A DNA stretch of 64,000 bases from Candidatus Aenigmatarchaeota archaeon (GTDB lineage: Archaea > Aenigmatarchaeota > Aenigmatarchaeia > GW2011-AR5 > JAGGXF01), in contig JAGGVU010000019.1 in the NCBI GenBank assembly GCA_021157845.1, positions 2,410 to 66,409 on the forward strand, read 5' to 3'. The notes under the pieces are model-generated. The model had not been told where the DNA came from. It saw only the letters and a list, made by a program, of their open reading frames with translations, and searched no databases. The translations under genes and the position numbers were made by a program. Positions within the stretch are counted from its first letter, which is position 1. Each line of letters starts with the position of its first letter. Below are positions 343 to 11,528 of the stretch, piece by piece.

Positions 343-467
343 AATTTATCTCCTCCAATAATTATATTTTTTTTCTATATCCCCAACCTTTAAATTATCT
401 ATATTCTATTTTGTTAATAAACATTTAAATCTTTTTAATCACCTTTTTAATCATTAGTTAAAAGAAA

Positions 468-636
468 GCTGGGGTAGCGAAGATCTTCGGATCGCAATCT
501 GGTTTAACGCGCAGGCCTGCTAACTAACCTCTTATGCAGTAAGTCTGTGGCCTTTGTGGCCCCGTGGGTTCAAACCACCCTTTCCACTGACGTGCAAAGC
601 GTGGACGGAAAGGATGTGAAATTCCCACCCCCAGCG
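468..636 (+). tRNA. putative tRNA with multiple introns (isotype undetermined)
   Basis: Acceptor GCTGGGG / CCCCAGC. D-stem GCGA/TCGC. T-stem GTGGG / CCCAC with a ~46-nt insertion inside the T-loop (TTCAAA...ATT), the same architecture as two other tRNAs here. Anticodon arm not resolved. Confidence 0.3.
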
Positions 637-646
637 TATTTTAATC

Positions 647-719
647 GGGTCGGTGGTCTAGTGGTTATGACGCTGCCCTTACAAGGCAGAGATCGCAAGT
701 TCAATTCTTGCCCGACCCA
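647..719 (+). tRNA. tRNA-Val (anticodon TAC), intronless
   Basis: Canonical cloverleaf: GGGTCGG acceptor, anticodon loop CTTACAA, T-arm GCAAGTTCAATTCTTGC, discriminator A. Confidence 0.85.
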
Positions 720-787
720 TTCCAACCTTTAGAAAAGGTTAAACCAAAATAAACTTAAAAAAGTTTTATCAAAAATATGGTGGTAAA

Positions 788-1096
788 ATGGCCAGTATAG
801 AGGAAGACGCAAAAAAGCTGAATATTCGTGGAATATTTACAACAGCCATAGTTTCAGCATTTTCATTTATTGCGGCATTATTTTGGAGAGATGCCATATC
901 CTCCACAATAGATGTGATACTGCCAAGTGGTGAAGGACTATATTATAAATATCTTGCAGCCGTCTTGGCAACAATTATAGCAGGCGTTGCTATTTATTTC
1001 ATATATAAGGCAGAAAAGCTCAAAGAAGAAAAATTTTTAAAAAGGCTACAGAAAATTAAAACAAAAAGTTATGTGAAATTAAAAAAGCTCCGGTAG
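788..1096 (+). CDS. small membrane protein, hypothetical
   Basis: 102 aa; two hydrophobic helices and a K-rich C-terminus. Confidence 0.35.
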   Translation: MASIEEDAKKLNIRGIFTTAIVSAFSFIAALFWRDAISSTIDVILPSGEGLYYKYLAAVLATIIAGVAIYFIYKAEKLKEEKFLKRLQKIKTKSYVKLKKLR

Positions 1097-1250
1097 TCTA
1101 GTCCGGTCAAGGATATCGGCCTTTCGACCAACCTTTAGAAAAGGTTGGACCAAAAAAAAGAAAGCCGACGACACGGGTTCAAACGAACCTTTTTAGAAAA
1201 AAGCTTCAATGGAAAAATCTGAAAAGGCTCTGAAATTCCCGTCCGGAGCA
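1087..1250 (+). tRNA. tRNA-Glu (anticodon TTC) with two introns (canonical 37/38 and T-loop)
   Basis: Acceptor GCTCCGG / CCGGAGC+A. Anticodon stem TCGGC / GCCGA, loop CTTTCG|A interrupted by a ~36-nt hairpin intron. T-stem ACGGG / CCCGT with a 53-nt T-loop insertion. Confidence 0.5.
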
Positions 1251-1260
1251 TTTTTTAGGC

Positions 1261-1688
1261 ATGATGACACAGCATGGAAAACAACTCTTTCCAGAACCAG
1301 TAGTTGGTGTATTAATTTTCAATACAGATGATGAGCTATTTCTGACGAAATCTCAATAAGTGGAAAAATGTCATTCCAGGAGGGCATATAGAACTGGATG
1401 AAAAGATCAAAGATGCCATTAAACGGTAAATTAAAGAAGAGACAGGATTAGATATTTTTGGCATCGAATTTATTTGTTTTCAGTTCATATTTGATGATGC
1501 TTTCTGGAAAAAGAGGCATTTCATTTTTAGACTACGCATGTAAAACAAAACCTAAAGAAATAATTTTGAATTCTGAGGAACAAGAATTTATTTGGATTGA
1601 TCCTAAAGAGGCCCTGAACTTGCCAGTTGAGACATATACAAAGAAAGCCATCGAAAAGTTTATTAAAAAATTTCCAAATGGATTTTAG
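1261..1688 (+). pseudogene. NUDIX hydrolase, disrupted (frameshift plus in-frame stops)
   Basis: MMTQHGKQLFPEPVVGVLIFNTDDELFLTKS, then a stop and frameshift. NUDIX box reads GGHIELDEKIKDAIKR*IKEETGL with TAA inside the box. Intact C-terminal part is ORF 1458..1688. Confidence 0.55.
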
Positions 1689-1900
1689 TTAAATTATTTT
1701 AACCGATTTTTTATTAGATTTTGTGGGCTTGGCTCTAAAAATAGTTTTGACTTGAAATATTTTTTAAGCGCATAAGAAATTAGTCTTTTGTTGGGTTTAT
1801 AAATTTTTTAACGCAAGTCGACAATATTTGTTTTATTAAAATAACAATGTATTAGAATAACTATAACATATTTAAAATTCCTTAAGATATGTTTATTCAC

Positions 1901-2085
1901 GCGGGGATGGCCGAGTCTGGTCAAACCAGCTTTTAAAAAAGTTCGACCAAAAAATTTGGATCAAACCTTTTCAAAAGGGCTGTGTTACAGAAAAAGGTGC
2001 AAGGTTGAGGGCCTTGTCGGTTAGAGATTGGTGCTTTTGCGCCTTTCAGCAAATCCGTTCGTGAGTTCAAATCTCACTCCCCGCA
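1901..2085 (+). tRNA. tRNA-Leu (anticodon GAG) with introns
   Basis: Acceptor GCGGGGA / TCCCCGC+A. D-arm GCC GAGTCTGGTCAAA..GGC with a ~50-nt insert. Anticodon arm CAAGG TTGAGGG CCTTG. Long variable region. T-arm GTGAG TTCAAAT CTCAC. Confidence 0.5.
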
Positions 2086-2108
2086 TTAATAAAAATCGAG
2101 GTTAATTT

Positions 2109-3221
2109 ATGAGTATGCATTCATATAGCGATGACAACGAAGCAAATATCCTTAGCAGGACAGACAATTTTCCTATTCGTTATATTGGTCATATTCATAA
2201 CGGAAAGGTCAGATCTGTTTATTGGCTTTCTCATGAGGACAGCAAAAGAATTATTGACGAGTATAATTACGAAGATATTCATCCAGAATCAAATCTTGGG
2301 GTAATGATTATAAGTGATAGAATATCGGCCTTTAATGTTAACTGGGCTGGCGAGAATGGATATGGGGTTTCTGGTAAAGGGGCATCACTTAATGCCATAT
2401 CAGAATATTGGCTTGGTAAAATATCTGAGCAAGGAATTGCTGAGCATCATATTTTAGATACACCACATCCATTGGTTTGGATTGTGAAGAAGGCCCAACC
2501 AATTAAGATTGAGGCGATTGCAAGACAATATATAACTGGAAGTATGTGGAGAGCATATGAGAGAGGAGAAAGAACCTTCTGCGGCATTTCATTGCCAGAA
2601 GGTCTTGAGAAAAACCAGCGGCTGGACGAACTTTTAATCACGCCAACTACGAAAGGAGTTGTTAGGGAATTGGTGGGTGTTCCTGCAAAGGATGATACGC
2701 CAATTACAAGAAAACAGATTGAAAATAATTATTTTAGGTTGAATTTTTATTCTCCAGAAGATATTGACCATTATGAAACGATAGTCAGAGATGCATTTGG
2801 TTTGATGAATAAAGAACTCTTAGATAAGGAACAAATTCTTGCTGATACAAAGTTTGAGTTTGGATATGTCAGAAAAGAAGATGGGATAGAAATGATTTGT
2901 ATAGACGAAGTCGGGACCCCTGACTCCTCAAGAATGTGGGATAAAGAAAAATACGAGCGAGGAATAATAGAAGAGCGTTCAAAAGAATATTTCAGAAAAT
3001 TTTTGCTTAACAAATTTGGAAAAGATGTGACCAGAACGAAGGTGGCTAAAAAATTAGCAAAAAATTATAAAGTTCCATCAGATGTTTTTGCCGAAGTTTC
3101 GGAGATTTATAGAAAAATGGCAAAAGATATAACTGGAAAAAATATTCCGAATATAAAGAATGCAAGACAAGAAGTGATTGATTCTCTTAAACCTTATGGA
3201 ATTATCAAGAATTTTCAATAA
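2109..3221 (+). CDS. purC: phosphoribosylaminoimidazole-succinocarboxamide (SAICAR) synthase
   Basis: 370 aa; KVRSVYW..., MIISDRISAFN, LADTKFEFGY match the PurC family. Confidence 0.75.
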   Translation: MSMHSYSDDNEANILSRTDNFPIRYIGHIHNGKVRSVYWLSHEDSKRIIDEYNYEDIHPESNLGVMIISDRISAFNVNWAGENGYGVSGKGASLNAISEYWLGKISEQGIAEHHILDTPHPLVWIVKKAQPIKIEAIARQYITGSMWRAYERGERTFCGISLPEGLEKNQRLDELLITPTTKGVVRELVGVPAKDDTPITRKQIENNYFRLNFYSPEDIDHYETIVRDAFGLMNKELLDKEQILADTKFEFGYVRKEDGIEMICIDEVGTPDSSRMWDKEKYERGIIEERSKEYFRKFLLNKFGKDVTRTKVAKKLAKNYKVPSDVFAEVSEIYRKMAKDITGKNIPNIKNARQEVIDSLKPYGIIKNFQ

Positions 3222-3277
3222 ATTACTGCAAATATAATTATATCAGAGGATTGAAATTTATTATATAGAAAAGTTAG

Positions 3278-3562
3278 TTATCTAAATTTATCTAAATAAT
3301 TATTGAGTTTCTCTATTCCATTTCCAAAATTCTTTCTATAACAATCTTGACGTCTTAAATTTAATTTCTTTTCTAAATCTCCAACATCGATTTTACCTTC
3401 GATAAAGCTATTTATTGCATTTGTTTTTTCTTTGGGATATTTTCTAATTTCTGCAGCTTTGTGCATCCCTTTTTGAAGTTCTTCATTTAATTCTTTATAT
3501 TTCTTTTCGGCTTCCTTTGATAACATAAATATATTTAAAATCAGCGAAGCTGATTTTAACAT
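3278..3562 (-). CDS. hypothetical protein
   Basis: 94-aa ORF, K/E-rich, no recognisable motif. Confidence 0.25.
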   Translation of the reverse strand: MLKSASLILNIFMLSKEAEKKYKELNEELQKGMHKAAEIRKYPKEKTNAINSFIEGKIDVGDLEKKLNLRRQDCYRKNFGNGIEKLNNYLDKFR

Positions 3563-3681
3563 ATCAAAATCGAATTTATAAATATCGTAAATTTAATTCG
3601 ATTTAAATATATTAATCCCACGAAGTATTTAAATTATTTTTACTGTTATTTAATATTAATGTAAATTTTTGACGTGATTAT

Positions 3682-3951
3682 ATGGCTAGGGTAAGTGTGT
3701 TTATTTACGGTCGAGTTCAGGGTGTTTTTTATAGAGATTTTGTACAGAAGAATGCAAATCGTTTGGGTTTGACCGGATGGGTAAAGAATCTTGCAGATGG
3801 CCGCGTTGAGGCAGAGCTAGAAGGAGATAAAGAGGTGATAGAGAAAATGCTTATGTTGATGAGACAAGGCCCAGCAGCCGCGAGAGTTGACAGTCTAGAA
3901 ACAACTTGGATAAAAGAAAAAGGAGATGACGCATTTAAGATAATCTATTAA
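3682..3951 (+). CDS. acyP: acylphosphatase
   Basis: 89 aa; YGRVQGVFYRDF and GWVKNLADGRVEA are acylphosphatase signatures. Confidence 0.85.
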   Translation: MARVSVFIYGRVQGVFYRDFVQKNANRLGLTGWVKNLADGRVEAELEGDKEVIEKMLMLMRQGPAAARVDSLETTWIKEKGDDAFKIIY

Positions 3952-3985
3952 GTTTAAATGTTTTATTATTTATTTTTAGTTTATG

Positions 3986-4207
3986 GCCGCGATGGTGTAG
4001 CTAAGTCCCTTTTCGTAAAGAAACAAGTGGTTCTTACAAAGAGGGGCTCTACAATGGTTAGCACAAAGGACTGTGGCAATCCTTTTTGACTTCGCCAGAC
4101 AAAAGAAAGGGTTGCAGACATCCTTTAGGCTGGGTTCAAACGAACCTTTTTAGAAAAAAGCTTCAATGGAAAAATCTGAAAAGGCTCTGAAATTCCCAGT
4201 CGCGGCC
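3986..4207 (+). tRNA. tRNA with multiple introns (isotype undetermined)
   Basis: Acceptor GCCGCGA / TCGCGGC+C. T-stem CTGGG / CCCAG with a 53-nt T-loop insertion identical to the one in tRNA-Glu. 222 nt total implies further introns. Confidence 0.4.
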
Positions 4208-6102
4208 TTTCTTTCTGAACAACGTTTAATACTATCAATTTTTTTCAAATTAAATATAGTCAGCTTGTGTATGGCTATCAAAATAACCTATTAAATTTTT
4301 GGGTAGCCAAACGAAAACTATTTAAGCATTGCCTTCCAAATAAACCATGCTACACTTTGGCGTTTGTTAAGATTTAAGCAGCTTTTGCTTAAAGATGAAG
4401 AACAGTTACCTTTTGTAGTAGAAGTTATGAAGATCTGAATTTATATTTAGGTCAGATATAGTCAAGTAGGTGTTTAACAATATCCGTTAGTAGAACTTCG
4501 TCAATTCCGGTTGATCCCGCCGGAGGTTACTGCTATCAGGATTCGATTAACCCATGCAAGGTTTTGAGATTGACATTCTGTCAAGATCAAACCGAACTGC
4601 TCAGTAACACGTAGTTAATCTGCCCTTAGGTCAGATATAACCTCGGGAAACTGAGGATAATATCTGATAGGAAAAAGATACTGGAAGGTTCTTTTTCTGA
4701 AAGCTTCGGCGCCTAAGGATGAGACTGCGGCGGATTAGCTTGTTGTTGGGGTAAAAGCCCAACAAGGCTATAATCCGTACGGGTCGTGAGAGCGATAGCC
4801 CGGAGATGGATTCTGAGATTTGAAATGAGCGGAATTAATTTATCCGTTCTTCAAACAGAAAACATGAATCCAGGCTCTACGGAGCGCAGCAGGGGCGAAA
4901 CCTTCACAATGCCTGAAAGGGTGATGAGGGAATCCTGAGTGATTTGGCACTGCCAAGTCTTTTGTCTACTCTAAAAAGGTAGACGAATAAGTGGTGGGTA
5001 AGACGGTTGCCAGCCGCCGCGGTAATTCGAATAAACGTAGTGCGTATTCGAACCGCAAATAACCGCGCCACGAGTGGTAATCTCGTTTATTGGGCCTAAA
5101 GCGTTCGTAGCTGGTTTGTTAAGTTTCTGATGAAATCTACTAGTAAACTAGTAGGCTCGTCGGAGATACTAACAAACTAGGGACCGGGAGACGTCGAGGG
5201 TACTCTTGGGGTAGGGGTAAAATCCTTTAATCCTAAGAGGACCACCTGTGGCGTAAATTTTTGGATTAGCCAAAAATTTCCAAACAAGGCGCTCGACGAG
5301 AACGGGTCCGACAGTGAGGGACGAAAGCTAGGGGAGCGACTGGGATTAGATACCCCATTAGTCCTAGCTGTAAACGATGCCCGCTTGGTGTTGCATATCT
5401 CTTGTGGATATGCAGTGCCGGAGCGAAGGTGTTAAGCGGGCCGCCTGGGGAGAGAAAGGTCGCAGCATTTAGTTTAAGAAAAAAATAAATTAAGTCGCGT
5501 GGCCTTTCCCCAAATACGGCCGCAAGGCTGAAACTTAAGGGAATTGGCGGGGGAGCACTACAAGGGGTGGAGGCTGCGGTTTAATTGGATTCAACGCCGG
5601 GAACCTTACCAGAAAAGACAGCAGTATGATGGTCAGTCTGAAGGGCTTACCTGACACGCTGAGAGGTGTTGCATGGCCGTCGTCAGCTCGTGCCGTGAGG
5701 TGTCCTGTTAAACCTTTAGAGCCCAAACTCTAGAGGTACAGATAGTCAGGAAACGAGCGAGACCTGTGTCACTATTTGCTATTACTCTGTCCGCAGAGTA
5801 AGCACTTTAGTGAGACTGCTTCTGCTAAAGAAGAGGAAGGTACAGGCAACGGCAGGTCTGTATGGCCCGAATTTTCTGGGTTACACGCGGCCTACAATGC
5901 GTAGAACAACGGGATGCAACCCTGAAATCATTTGTGCTTTTGCACATATGTCAGTTAGGGAAGCTAAACCCTTAAATCTACGCCTAGTTCGGATCGAGGG
6001 CTGCAACTTGCCCTCGTGAAGCTGGAATCCCTAGTAAGCAGAAGTCATCAAACAATACTTCAGAAGCACTGATGCTTTGGAAGATTGTGTGGAGTCTTTT
6101 GC

Positions 6103-6140
<38 letters not shown>

Positions 6141-6232
6141 GCCATCTGAGTGGAGCTTTGGTGAGGCTTGTTCTAAAGTTGATTTTCAACTAATTGTACA
6201 AGTCGAACCAGAGCCCTACAAGGAGGGCTAAC

Positions 6233-7096
<864 letters not shown>

Positions 7097-7188
7097 AATT
7101 TCTAACATCAAACGCCAAAGGTTCGACGTTAGAAATAGTGTGCCTGCTTACGGATTGTTAAAAAATACCTACTTGGCTGTATCTTAAA

Positions 7189-7332
7189 GGGCCGGTAGAT
7201 CAATGGAATGTCCTTTCCGCTTCGCGGAAATGCGTTAAAGATCGCTACCCTTGCACTGCATTAAAACAATTATAAGGTTTGGACTGTCTACAGGTTAGGT
7301 AGAGGTTGTGGGTTCAAGTCCCATCCGGTCCA
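7189..7332 (+). tRNA. tRNA-Ala (anticodon TGC) in the 16S-23S spacer, with introns
   Basis: Acceptor GGGCCGG / CCGGTCC with the G3:U70 alanine identity pair. Anticodon loop CTTGCA. T-arm GTGGGTTCAAGTCCCAT. 144 nt, so intron(s) in the D-loop and after position 37. Confidence 0.6.
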
Positions 7333-9545: not shown

Positions 9546-10306
9546 AAATTTGGCTGTATGCTGAGACATCCAGTTAAGTTCTAGGTCCTGAGTAAGGAAC
9601 AATCCTAGAAATATGGACAATCAGCAGGAAACCGCGAGAGGTGATTTCTATGATAAAAAACAAATACCTTAACTGGTATTTAGTTGGCTTCACAGATGCA
9701 GAAGGTTGTTTTTCAATTTCATTAAAAAGAGAAAAAACAACTAAATTTGGATGGGCATTGGATCCAGTATTCCAAATAACACAGCATAAATCAAATGAAA
9801 AAGTTTTACATTTTTTCAAAAGACAACTGCATTGTGGAAGAATAATAGAAAAATCAGGACAACCAAATATTTTAGTTTATTTGGTTGATAATAGAAGACA
9901 ACTCGTAGAAAAAGTAATACCATTTTTCAAAAGATATAAACTGATTTTGAAAAACAACGATTTTCAGAAATTTACTGAAATTATAACAGACTTGGAAAAT
10001 AAACTGCATTCAAATAAAAAAACATTTATAGAATTAATAAAAAAATGTTTTGAAATGAATTTGAATGGTAAGCAAAGAAAATATGAGCTTGAATTTGTTT
10101 TGAAAAATCTAAAAAAATGAGCGGGATCCCCAGAGACTATACGCCAAACACAAAAATAGAACGGAGAGTATCCTTATTTTTGTGAAGAGATAGTCCGAAC
10201 CTTATGGAGACATAAGGAAACTTGTAGAAATACAAGTTCGCCTTATAGACAAAACATGCTTTGCATGTCAGTCTGTAAAGGTCATAAAGTAACAGATTGA
10301 GCGTAA
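9546..10306 (+). mobile_element. 23S rRNA intron 1 (about E. coli 1915-1930 region) with LAGLIDADG ORF
   Basis: Exon ...GGTGAAAATTGCCTT is interrupted and resumes at CCCTTGCCGGTTAAATGTTGGCCTGCA. Boundaries approximate. Confidence 0.5.
9641..10120 (+). CDS. LAGLIDADG homing endonuclease (single-motif)
   Basis: 159 aa; LVGFTDAEGCF motif. Confidence 0.7.
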   Translation: MISMIKNKYLNWYLVGFTDAEGCFSISLKREKTTKFGWALDPVFQITQHKSNEKVLHFFKRQLHCGRIIEKSGQPNILVYLVDNRRQLVEKVIPFFKRYKLILKNNDFQKFTEIITDLENKLHSNKKTFIELIKKCFEMNLNGKQRKYELEFVLKNLKK

Positions 10307-10804: not shown

Positions 10805-11528
10805 GTTTGTAGGTGGTTCTCAGTCGTTCAGCAAGCATATTCTAATTTTCGATCTCAAATACGAAAATTAGATAAGCTTACTTCACCTTAAATAAATCAT
10901 GAAAATTGAAAATTTTCAGTTAAACGCAAGAAATTTAACTAGTAACTATTTTTATGGATTTTTAGTTGGTGCTAGCGAAGACGGAACAGTTTATCAAAGA
11001 AAGAAGAAAAATGAATATATGGTAGAAATCGAGCAAAAATCTAAGTATTGGCTTGAATTTGTTCAGGAAATTATTTTGAGATTTTACAAAAAATCAGTGA
11101 AAATAAGAAAAACTTCAAAAGGATTTTACAGAATAAGAATTTATTCCAAGAAATTTTTCAATCAAATAAAAAAACACAGAATAAATTCCTCATGGATACT
11201 TAGAAAATCCAAAGAATTTCAACTAGGATTTCTTCAAGGAGTATATGATGCAGAAGGAAGTATTAAAAAATCCAGAAATCACATAACAATCAGTTCAAAT
11301 AGAAAAGATTTAATTAGAATATTACAGATTTTATTAACAAATCTTAATTTTAGACTAGGGAAAACTTGGAAAGATTATAATGGTGTTATTACTTTGCCAT
11401 TTTATGGTAAAGATAATCTGAAAAGATTTCAAGAATTAATAAATTTTAGACATCCGAAAAAGAAGGAAAGGCTTGCTGAGCTTCTGAACGATAATTACTT
11501 ACAGACCCCTAAAATGGTGTCGTAGCGG
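10805..11528 (+). mobile_element. 23S rRNA intron 2 (after CCCTGGGGATA, domain V) with LAGLIDADG ORF
   Basis: Conserved AAGCTACCCTGGGGATA is followed by non-rRNA sequence and the ORF. rRNA resumes near GAGAGTTCATATCGAC. Boundaries approximate. Confidence 0.5.
10899..11525 (+). CDS. LAGLIDADG homing endonuclease (double-motif)
   Basis: 208 aa; YGFLVGASEDGTV and LGFLQGVYDAEGSI motifs. Confidence 0.7.
   Translation: MKIENFQLNARNLTSNYFYGFLVGASEDGTVYQRKKKNEYMVEIEQKSKYWLEFVQEIILRFYKKSVKIRKTSKGFYRIRIYSKKFFNQIKKHRINSSWILRKSKEFQLGFLQGVYDAEGSIKKSRNHITISSNRKDLIRILQILLTNLNFRLGKTWKDYNGVITLPFYGKDNLKRFQELINFRHPKKKERLAELLNDNYLQTPKMVS

Follow-up and report, generated by a model that had tools for sequence, protein, structure and literature searches.

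How do neighboring tRNA genes come to be interrupted two or three times each, and why should two tRNAs of different identity carry the very same insert? The question is raised by a 64,000-nucleotide (nt) stretch of contig JAGGVU010000019.1 of Candidatus Aenigmatarchaeota archaeon (hereafter the window), in which an initial annotation, made from the letters alone, had seen tRNA genes with several introns each and an identical insertion in the T-loops of two of them. We consider it probable (roughly 85%) that these are functional tRNA genes with bulge-helix-bulge (BHB) introns, that two intron families were recently copied between unrelated tRNA genes, and that a remnant of one copy lies beside tRNA-Val.

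Putative Splicing Signals in Five Interrupted tRNA Genes

Run on the raw window, ARAGORN and Rfam call a single tRNA, the intron-less tRNA-Val(UAC). A scan for acceptor-stem plus T-arm geometry on both strands of all 64 kb, which required an intact T-stem, gave six credible loci, all inside the first 7.4 kb (468-7332), and no further credible interrupted tRNA. Five of the six genes contain 12 inserts in total, of 15-70 nt, with two or three per interrupted gene. Exon order is colinear in all loci, with no split or permuted gene among them, and each interrupted gene lies within 144-223 nt.

BHB motifs were scanned for as a 4-base pair (bp) helix between two 3-nt bulges, cut after the second base of each bulge, and products spliced at the matches were run through ARAGORN. 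In addition to the strict class (hBHBh'), the relaxed classes hBH, HBh', and bulge-helix-loop (BHL) were considered. A motif bounds all 12 inserts, four of them strict (the three T-loop introns and the anticodon-loop intron of tRNA-His) and eight relaxed (table 1), and removal of the inserts gives full-length cloverleaves for tRNA-Ser(GCU), Glu(UUC), Leu(GAG), His(GUG), and Ala(UGC). Unconstrained minimum free energy (MFE) folds, of whole pre-tRNAs as well as of introns with 14-nt flanks, recover the strict motif in all three T-loop introns. They also contain the helix and 3-nt 3' bulge of the Ser anticodon intron, and the helix and UUA 3' bulge of the Ala anticodon intron, whose overall fold is weak. 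Folding z values are -3.85 for the Glu anticodon intron, and -3.31, -3.17, and -2.82 for the D-loop, anticodon, and T-loop introns of tRNA-His, respectively. The multi-intron tRNAs proposed by the initial annotation are thus supported by the BHB motifs at the junctions, the canonical spliced products, and the intron-less orthologs of a related genome, which are gapped exactly there (see below). The D-loop and anticodon introns claimed for tRNA-Ala in the rRNA spacer were likewise confirmed. Rfam gave no match to a group I or group II ribozyme core in 400-4300 even at E <= 1, and the inserts are too short for one.

The loci might instead be pseudogenes of tRNAs into which small elements or repeats have inserted that are never spliced out. 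Standard tRNA finders do miss them, and the element families occur in several copies, one of them not within a tRNA. We nonetheless regard this as very improbable: a BHB or relaxed BHB stands in the correct register at every insert, exon sequences have been maintained across genomes, compensatory changes included, three lineages share the synteny of the cluster, to which the rRNA-spacer tRNA-Ala belongs, no intact duplicates were seen in the 64 kb, and the BHB-forming intron ends are conserved while the cores drift.

One T-Loop Intron in Unrelated tRNAs

The longest exact repeat shared by tRNA-Glu and tRNA-His spans 66 nt (1175-1240 and 4132-4197) and is made of GGGTTCAAA, the 53-nt insert, and TCCC. 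The insert is indeed identical at 53 of 53 positions, although its limits (1184-1236 and 4141-4193) differ by a few bases from those first given. The 51-mer quoted by the initial annotation occurs exactly twice, at 1184-1234 and 4141-4191, with 0 occurrences expected from shuffles. The exact identity tract stops where the bases common to both T-arms stop, and the exons of the two tRNAs are only 61% identical, which is the ordinary background between tRNAs. Inheritance of the intron from a common ancestor of the tRNAs could be argued from the recurrence of a break point at 59/60 in distant organisms (PMC3218864), but it is effectively refuted by the contrast between 100% identical introns and 61% identical exons and by the absence of the intron from orthologs in a close relative.

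In all three T-loop introns of the window, UUCA of the T-loop pairs with UGAA of the intron, the bulges are AA↓C and AU↓U (arrows mark the cuts), the outer helix is the T-stem and the inner helix a 9-13-bp intron stem. This holds for tRNA-Ser too, where the intron stem forms 9 of 10 bp and the MFE fold agrees. The Ser insert had been correctly located at the same T-loop position (575-622, 48 nt) and described as different; its core is different, but its ends are homologous to those of the Glu/His intron. A structure-aware pattern search of metagenome contigs extended the family. A third host is tRNA-Arg(CCU) of the same Guaymas population (contigs L006 and L008, GC 35%), with a 94% identical intron; these contigs are read as Arg(CCU) from the anticodon loop CUCCUAA, which is followed by a 67-nt 37/38 intron with flanking helices of 5 bp and 7 bp, and the Arg gene of L006 additionally carries D-region inserts. 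More diverged members are the Ser intron of the window, the sole intron of a tRNA-Gly(GCC) (L010), and an intron in a probable tRNA-Trp(CCA) (L005). In a comparison of seven distinct members, 93% of the BHB and stem positions are paired, versus 31-63% in controls with the partner slid; five intron-stem pairs have changed on both sides, and UUCA/UGAA is invariant. The same structure-aware pattern had no viral match that would point to a viral origin of the T-loop intron.

The probable tRNA-Trp (L005, reverse strand, 613-886) has a 274-nt pre-tRNA with a 97-nt 37/38 intron and a 68-nt T-loop intron, as well as a family-A-like module (see below) and a 5' insert. Its 37/38 intron contains CCUGGAGC and then UCUGA, a segment that is complementary to the anticodon loop. 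It resembles the classical archaeal box C/D guide that resides in tRNA-Trp introns. The introns of the window have no C/D boxes, the C box (RUGAUGA) being absent on reading of their sequences, and they match no Rfam family.

Intron Turnover among Strains and a Sister Species

Close strains, about 97-98% identical to the window, are represented by L003/L009, L004/L007, and L036 (GCA_053938065.1), and show the same loci with small differences. The same Glu/His arrangement is found in the independent assemblies L003, L007, and L036. The His T-loop intron exists as three alleles among strains, namely that of the window, one with two changes (L003), and a 69-nt form with the same BHB-forming ends and a new core (L036). 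The core of the His D-loop intron also differs in L003. These observations bear on the suspicion that the 66-nt identity is an assembly artifact, in which a repeat was collapsed or the contig is chimeric. Chimeras can occur in metagenome assemblies, and L001 and L004 have odd junctions exactly inside tRNA or intron repeats; since the Glu/His arrangement recurs, slightly varied, in independent samples and pipelines (L003/L009, L004/L007, and L036), we give this explanation hardly any weight.

A more distant relative (R2), comprising L032 (a 140-kb Guaymas scaffold) and L033 (GCA_029932645.1), was found through the small DUF5654 open reading frame (ORF) between Val and Glu, which is 64% identical. 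Its gene order is that of the window: Ser-Val-ORF-Glu, then Leu, then acylphosphatase-His. Spliced products are full-length in both genomes, and exons are 85-96% identical with compensatory stem changes. Over five orthologous tRNAs, six intron positions are particular to the window, four to R2, and four are shared. The six sites without an intron in R2 are the D-arm, anticodon, and T-loop sites of Ser, the anticodon and T-loop sites of Glu, and the T-loop site of His; pairwise gaps of 15, 19, and 48 nt in Ser and of 53 nt in the Glu and His T-loops fall exactly at the predicted junctions. Conversely, R2 has introns in the Ser variable arm (32 nt), the Val D-loop (17 nt), and at Val 37/38 (52 nt), plus a 31-nt intron with a strict BHB in the Glu variable loop, whose removal yields exactly the window sequence. 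The only common positions are Leu D-loop, Leu variable arm, His D-loop, and His anticodon loop. Even there the introns differ: at the same His junctions, R2 has an 85-nt D-loop intron and a different, 39-nt anticodon intron.

Because only four positions are shared, at least 10 gains or losses separate five orthologous genes. Moreover, the T-loop introns are missing from R2, and no orthologous introns of the window and R2 come close to the similarity of the Glu and His copies. One or both of these copies were therefore inserted or overwritten since the two lineages separated. The proposal that identical introns reflect recent transfer is thus upheld by the identity of the introns over diverged exons, by the third host Arg, by the intron-less Ser, Glu, and His of R2, and by the differing strain alleles.

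Family A and a Probable Remnant beside tRNA-Val

A second family (family A) occupies anticodon loops. Over its initial 23 nt, the anticodon intron of tRNA-Glu (1127-1162) equals the 52-nt anticodon intron of R2 tRNA-Val, and the 3' tetramer fits each host loop, pairing as AAAG-CUUU in Glu and UAAG-CUUA in Val. In the window, where tRNA-Val is intron-less, a copy begins 2 nt past this gene (722-753) and is 91% identical to the Glu anticodon intron. The whole Val-to-ORF spacer aligns to the R2 Val intron in two blocks, 19/19 and about 19/22, and the spacer of R2 itself is unrelated. All five anticodon-stem base pairs of tRNA-Val differ between the window and R2, unlike in other orthologous pairs. 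Judged from these alignments, an ancestral intron-containing tRNA-Val was probably replaced by an intron-less copy, the old intron being left behind as the spacer. The hairpin of this putative fossil is decaying in strains L007 and L036.

Contig L004 (reverse strand, 1-110) begins with a tRNA-Glu 5' half, from D-loop to anticodon loop, which is joined through a Glu-intron/Val-fossil hybrid to the normal spacer, the ORF, and a full tRNA-Glu. Exactly such a structure would result if the fossil and the Glu intron, 400 bp apart, had recombined by unequal crossover; being at the end of a contig, it may also be an assembly chimera. Weaker similarity links the Leu D-loop intron, the R2 His anticodon intron, and the L005 Trp intron, which have related modules of a hairpin plus ACCAAAA.

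The 19-nt core of family A, CCAACCTTTAGAAAAGGTT (window 722-748 and 1128-1154), has 14 exact matches in viral contigs (L016-L029), mostly giant-virus metagenome-assembled genomes (MAGs), and 12 of the 14 also carry the extension G-NN-CCAAA, which was outside the query. There the CCAACCTTTAGAAAAGGTT repeat is a 27-nt tandem or dispersed non-coding palindrome (e.g., L027 5817-5870 and L023 4086-5020), whose variants keep stem complementarity. Control 19-mers gave 0, 0, and 2 matches. The likeness may be accidental, may stem from convergent AT-rich hairpins, or may reflect a true relationship, and such a relationship is unproven.

How the Introns May Have Spread

In the established archaeal pathway, the endonuclease EndA cuts both bulges and the ligase RtcB joins the exons, and by analogy the introns described here would be removed in this way. 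The T-loop intron may be viewed as a self-contained cassette: its 3' end (UGAA plus AU) would pair with T-loop bases 54-57 (UUCA), the T-stem supplying the outer helix and the intron's own 9-13-bp stem the inner one. Almost every tRNA T-arm contains GG-UUCAAAU-CC, and therefore the cassette would make up a valid splice site whichever tRNA hosts it. Both it and the anticodon-loop family were presumably copied between unrelated tRNA genes at the DNA level, most likely where the short conserved exon sequences on either side allow recombination or gene conversion. Gain, loss, and exchange of introns would thereby take place within the time that separates strains and sister species, and the Val-adjacent copy would be what remained of an intron after gene replacement by an intron-less version.

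The same data can be read as concerted evolution only, in which Glu, His, and Arg had T-loop introns to begin with and gene conversion has maintained their identity. As conversion predicts, short stretches of conserved T-arm sequence flank the identity tract, and the L036 His intron, with the same ends around another 69-nt core, shows how the window His copy could have been overwritten from Glu. However, given the intron-less Ser, Glu, and His T-loops of R2, this reading needs either some insertions or three independent losses. It also requires movement to a new host for family A, whose host is Val in R2 and Glu in the window, and conversion between non-homologous tRNA genes is itself a kind of intron transfer. 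We therefore find it unlikely, though not negligible, as a full account.

Several points weigh against the copying of spliceable introns that we favor. The data fit both de novo insertion and gene conversion between pre-existing introns. That all 12 inserts are spliced is something we infer from sequence, and no EndA (tRNA_int_endo) match was found among the 50 window ORFs scanned. The T-loop covariation alignment was register-fixed by hand and comprises only seven sequences, the Val fossil scenario relies on about 40 aligned bases in AT-rich DNA, and two boundaries in tRNA-Leu are uncertain by 1-4 nt.

A bolder version, which we put forward tentatively and with more doubt than belief, is that the introns are active mobile cassettes, the T-loop family being able to enter any tRNA and the anticodon family neighboring ones by retuning its 4-nt segment, and that their copies act as recombination substrates that remodel the cluster. 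The Val fossil and the crossover-like haplotype of L004 fit such a role for the copies. If it were true, the cluster would be the first case in nature where gains, exchanges, and losses of archaeal tRNA introns can be traced stepwise from strains to species.

Comparison with Known Systems

To our knowledge, the only documented "intron transposition" is that of Thermoproteales, and it rests on the comparison of distant species. Some Thermoproteales tRNA introns are reported to be similar to viral DNA; for the introns described here, such similarity is not established by the pattern and core searches. Multi-intron tRNAs, and near-identical introns in unrelated tRNAs, are known from this group (PMC4090602, PMC4033280). 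The present case is alike in that similar introns, some nearly identical, occupy unrelated isoacceptors of different identity, are present or absent at orthologous sites, and would have been gained at the DNA level under the guidance of the BHB requirement. It differs in its host, an AT-rich member of Aenigmarchaeota (DPANN) instead of Crenarchaeota, in that the clearest family sits at T-loop 59/60, where the exon half of the motif consists of universally conserved T-arm bases, and in a turnover that is visible between strains and sister species and has left an extragenic intron fossil.

Increased tRNA gene disruption in DPANN has been linked to an EndA with an inserted loop (L3-loop alpha4), and undetected disrupted tRNAs are said to need manual curation (PMC5829648); ARMAN archaea have a broad-specificity epsilon2 EndA (PMC3239211, PMC3488258). 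Removal of the eight relaxed introns here would call for an EndA that accepts non-canonical motifs (alpha2beta2, epsilon2, or loop-bearing alpha4), as may be expected from what is described for DPANN in general (PMC5829648). The window resembles these cases in its DPANN lineage, its multiple non-canonical introns and relaxed BHBs, and its genes missed by tRNA finders. The accessible portions of the three papers give counts and enzyme types and report no intron families across unrelated tRNAs. A literature search found no paper specifically on Aenigmarchaeota tRNA introns.

In Thermofilum pendens and the red alga Cyanidioschyzon merolae, permuted tRNAs have their BHB junction at 59/60 (PMC3218864). 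Here, too, the BHB lies exactly at T-loop 59/60 with the T-stem as outer helix, but the gene halves are colinear with a 48-69-nt intron between them. The initial statement that T-loop introns are rare agrees with the accessible papers, which name 59/60 only as the junction of these permuted genes. Outside Crenarchaeota, an HBh' D-arm intron is known from pre-tRNA-Glu(UUC) of Methanopyrus kandleri (PMC5829648); relaxed-BHB D-arm introns occur here as well, yet five of six neighboring tRNAs are multiply interrupted, unlike that isolated case.

The kind of system is thus already known (BHB introns and intron transposition), and this instance is unusually clear. What is new is the lineage, a T-loop family in at least three unrelated tRNAs, the strain and species turnover in one syntenic cluster, and the extragenic remnant. 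The cluster resolves the process seen in Thermoproteales far more finely: identical copies in unrelated tRNAs of one genome, alleles among 97-98% identical strains, a sister species with a largely different intron set in the same syntenic genes, and an extragenic leftover. Such a series makes the mechanism of spread testable, as recombination via conserved tRNA sequence versus an RNA-mediated route. Since standard finders report one of the six tRNAs, tRNA counts, completeness values, and "missing tRNA" statements for such MAGs will be badly wrong unless BHB-aware tools are used.

Intron Boundaries in tRNA-Leu and Coordinates of All Features

tRNA-Leu was the most difficult gene to delimit. ARAGORN accepts nearly any pair of deletions in it and is of no use for fixing boundaries, and a non-recursive BHB solver, which solved Gly, was spurious for Leu, Arg, and L005, so that these were resolved by hand and by comparison, apart from the D-region inserts of Arg (L006) and the 5' inserts of Trp (L005). 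The D-loop intron noted initially stands. Where it lies, L001 and R2 have another insert, of 32-36 nt, from which the exon junction can be placed at GGTC↓AAAGGTG, and therefore the window intron is one 70-nt unit; its motif has a 3-bp helix (CTG/CAG) and an interrupted 7-bp intron stem. The anticodon intron noted with it does not stand. A candidate at 37/38 (2011-2033), with a 10-12-bp exon helix, was rejected, as this helix is not conserved in R2 and the uninterrupted anticodon stem covaries (CAAGG/CCTTG in the window and CGAGG/CCTCG in R2). The anticodon arm is therefore intact, and the second insert lies in the variable arm, where the BHB helix forms 3 of 4 bp in the window and 4 of 4 in R2, with an intron stem of 8/8 in the latter. 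Both choices of its 5' site give tRNA-Leu(GAG).

In L001 (1318-1470), the Leu 5' half and everything upstream come from a different lineage, with an R2-like D-loop intron and the acceptor GCAGGGG, and the contig is identical to the window from AAAAAGGTG on. Either L001 represents a recombinant haplotype, or it is chimeric and was joined within tRNA-Leu.

Table 1. tRNA genes, putative introns, and the candidate intron fossil in the window (H, BHB helix; arrows, predicted cuts)
Feature	Position	Strand	Evidence
tRNA-Ser(GCU), three introns	468-636	+	Spliced product full-length (ARAGORN); R2 ortholog lacks all three
Ser D-arm intron, 15 nt, ~position 15/16, relaxed BHB	483-497	+	H GCGA/TCGC 4/4; bulges AG↓A, AA↓T
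Ser anticodon-loop intron, 19 nt, canonical 37/38, hBH	523-541	+	H CTGC/GCAG 4/4; exon helix 7 bp
Ser T-loop intron, 48 nt, 59/60, strict hBHBh'	575-622	+	H TTCA/TGAA; bulges AA↓C, AT↓T
tRNA-Val(UAC), intron-less	647-719	+	ARAGORN, Rfam
Putative fossil of Val anticodon intron (whole Val-to-ORF spacer), 68 nt	720-787	+	Alignment to R2 Val 37/38 intron
tRNA-Glu(UUC), two introns	1087-1250	+	Spliced product full-length; R2 anticodon and T loops intact
Glu anticodon-loop intron, 36 nt, 37/38, hBH, family A	1127-1162	+	H CTTT/AAAG 4/4; exon helix 5 bp
Glu T-loop intron, 53 nt, 59/60, strict hBHBh'	1184-1236	+	Identical to 4141-4193; not in R2 Glu
tRNA-Leu(GAG), two introns	1901-2085	+	Spliced forms full-length
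Leu D-loop intron, 70 nt, ~20a/20b, relaxed BHB	1923-1992	+	Boundary uncertainty 1 nt
Leu variable-arm intron, 27-31 nt	2022 or 2026 to 2052	+	5' site 2021/2022 or 2025/2026; 3' site 2052/2053
tRNA-His(GUG), encoded G-1, three introns	3985-4207	+	Spliced product full-length; 8-bp acceptor stem
His D-loop intron, 52 nt, ~17/18, HBh'	4003-4054	+	H GTAG/CTAC 4/4; intron stem 10/10
His anticodon-loop intron, 43 nt, 37/38, strict hBHBh'	4077-4119	+	H CTGT/GCAG; intron stem 10/10; exon helix 6 bp
His T-loop intron, 53 nt, 59/60, strict hBHBh'	4141-4193	+	Identical to 1184-1236; not in R2 His
tRNA-Ala(UGC) in 16S-23S spacer, two introns	7189-7332	+	Spliced product full-length; G3:U70
Ala D-loop intron, 31 nt, ~20/21	7208-7238	+	H AATG/CGTT 4/4; flanking helices 3 and 4 bp
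Ala anticodon-loop intron, 41 nt, 37/38, hBH	7256-7296	+	H CTTG/CAGG 4/4; exon helix 5 bp

Lineage and Other Features of the Window

The window is archaeal and AT-rich (35% GC), and encodes RNase P RNA as well as an rRNA operon interrupted by large insertions. The nearest named ABCE1 homologs (98%, then 57-64%) all belong to Candidatus Aenigmatarchaeota/Aenigmarchaeota, and the 98% match sits on the syntenic contig of GCA_053938065.1, which, on this protein evidence, places the organism in Aenigmarchaeota, as a DPANN archaeon. An affiliation with Thermococci, suggested by the title of a related MAG and by best PDB hits to Pyrococcus and Thermococcus, was ruled out by the ABCE1 neighbors. The MAG in question, "Thermococci archaeon isolate B89_G9" (L003, QMUB01000120.1), is 97-98% identical to the window and its taxon label looks wrong.

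PurC (2109-3221) is of a long, 370-aa form whose next-best homologs, at 58%, come from DPANN-labeled MAGs, Verrucomicrobia, and Gammaproteobacteria, which suggests that it may have been acquired horizontally. With identity dropping from 100% to 58%, and matches from both DPANN and bacteria, PurC was useless as a synteny probe. A NUDIX hydrolase frame (1261-1688) has an in-frame TAA (~1436-1438) at the glutamate of the RE motif of the Nudix box and a frameshift near 1525; it is either a pseudogene or affected by sequence errors.

Large insertions with LAGLIDADG homing-endonuclease ORFs interrupt the 3' end of the 16S rRNA gene (6237-7064) and the 23S rRNA gene (9641-10120 and 10899-11525), the latter measuring 4.5 kb versus 3.0 kb in the model. 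The 16S insertion is missing in strain L003, and the conserved GTCGTAACAAGG beside it reads CTCGACAAACAAGG. The 16S gene also has short inserts, for example, around 4819-4860, 5026-5060, 5256-5285, 5455-5510, and 5708-5745.

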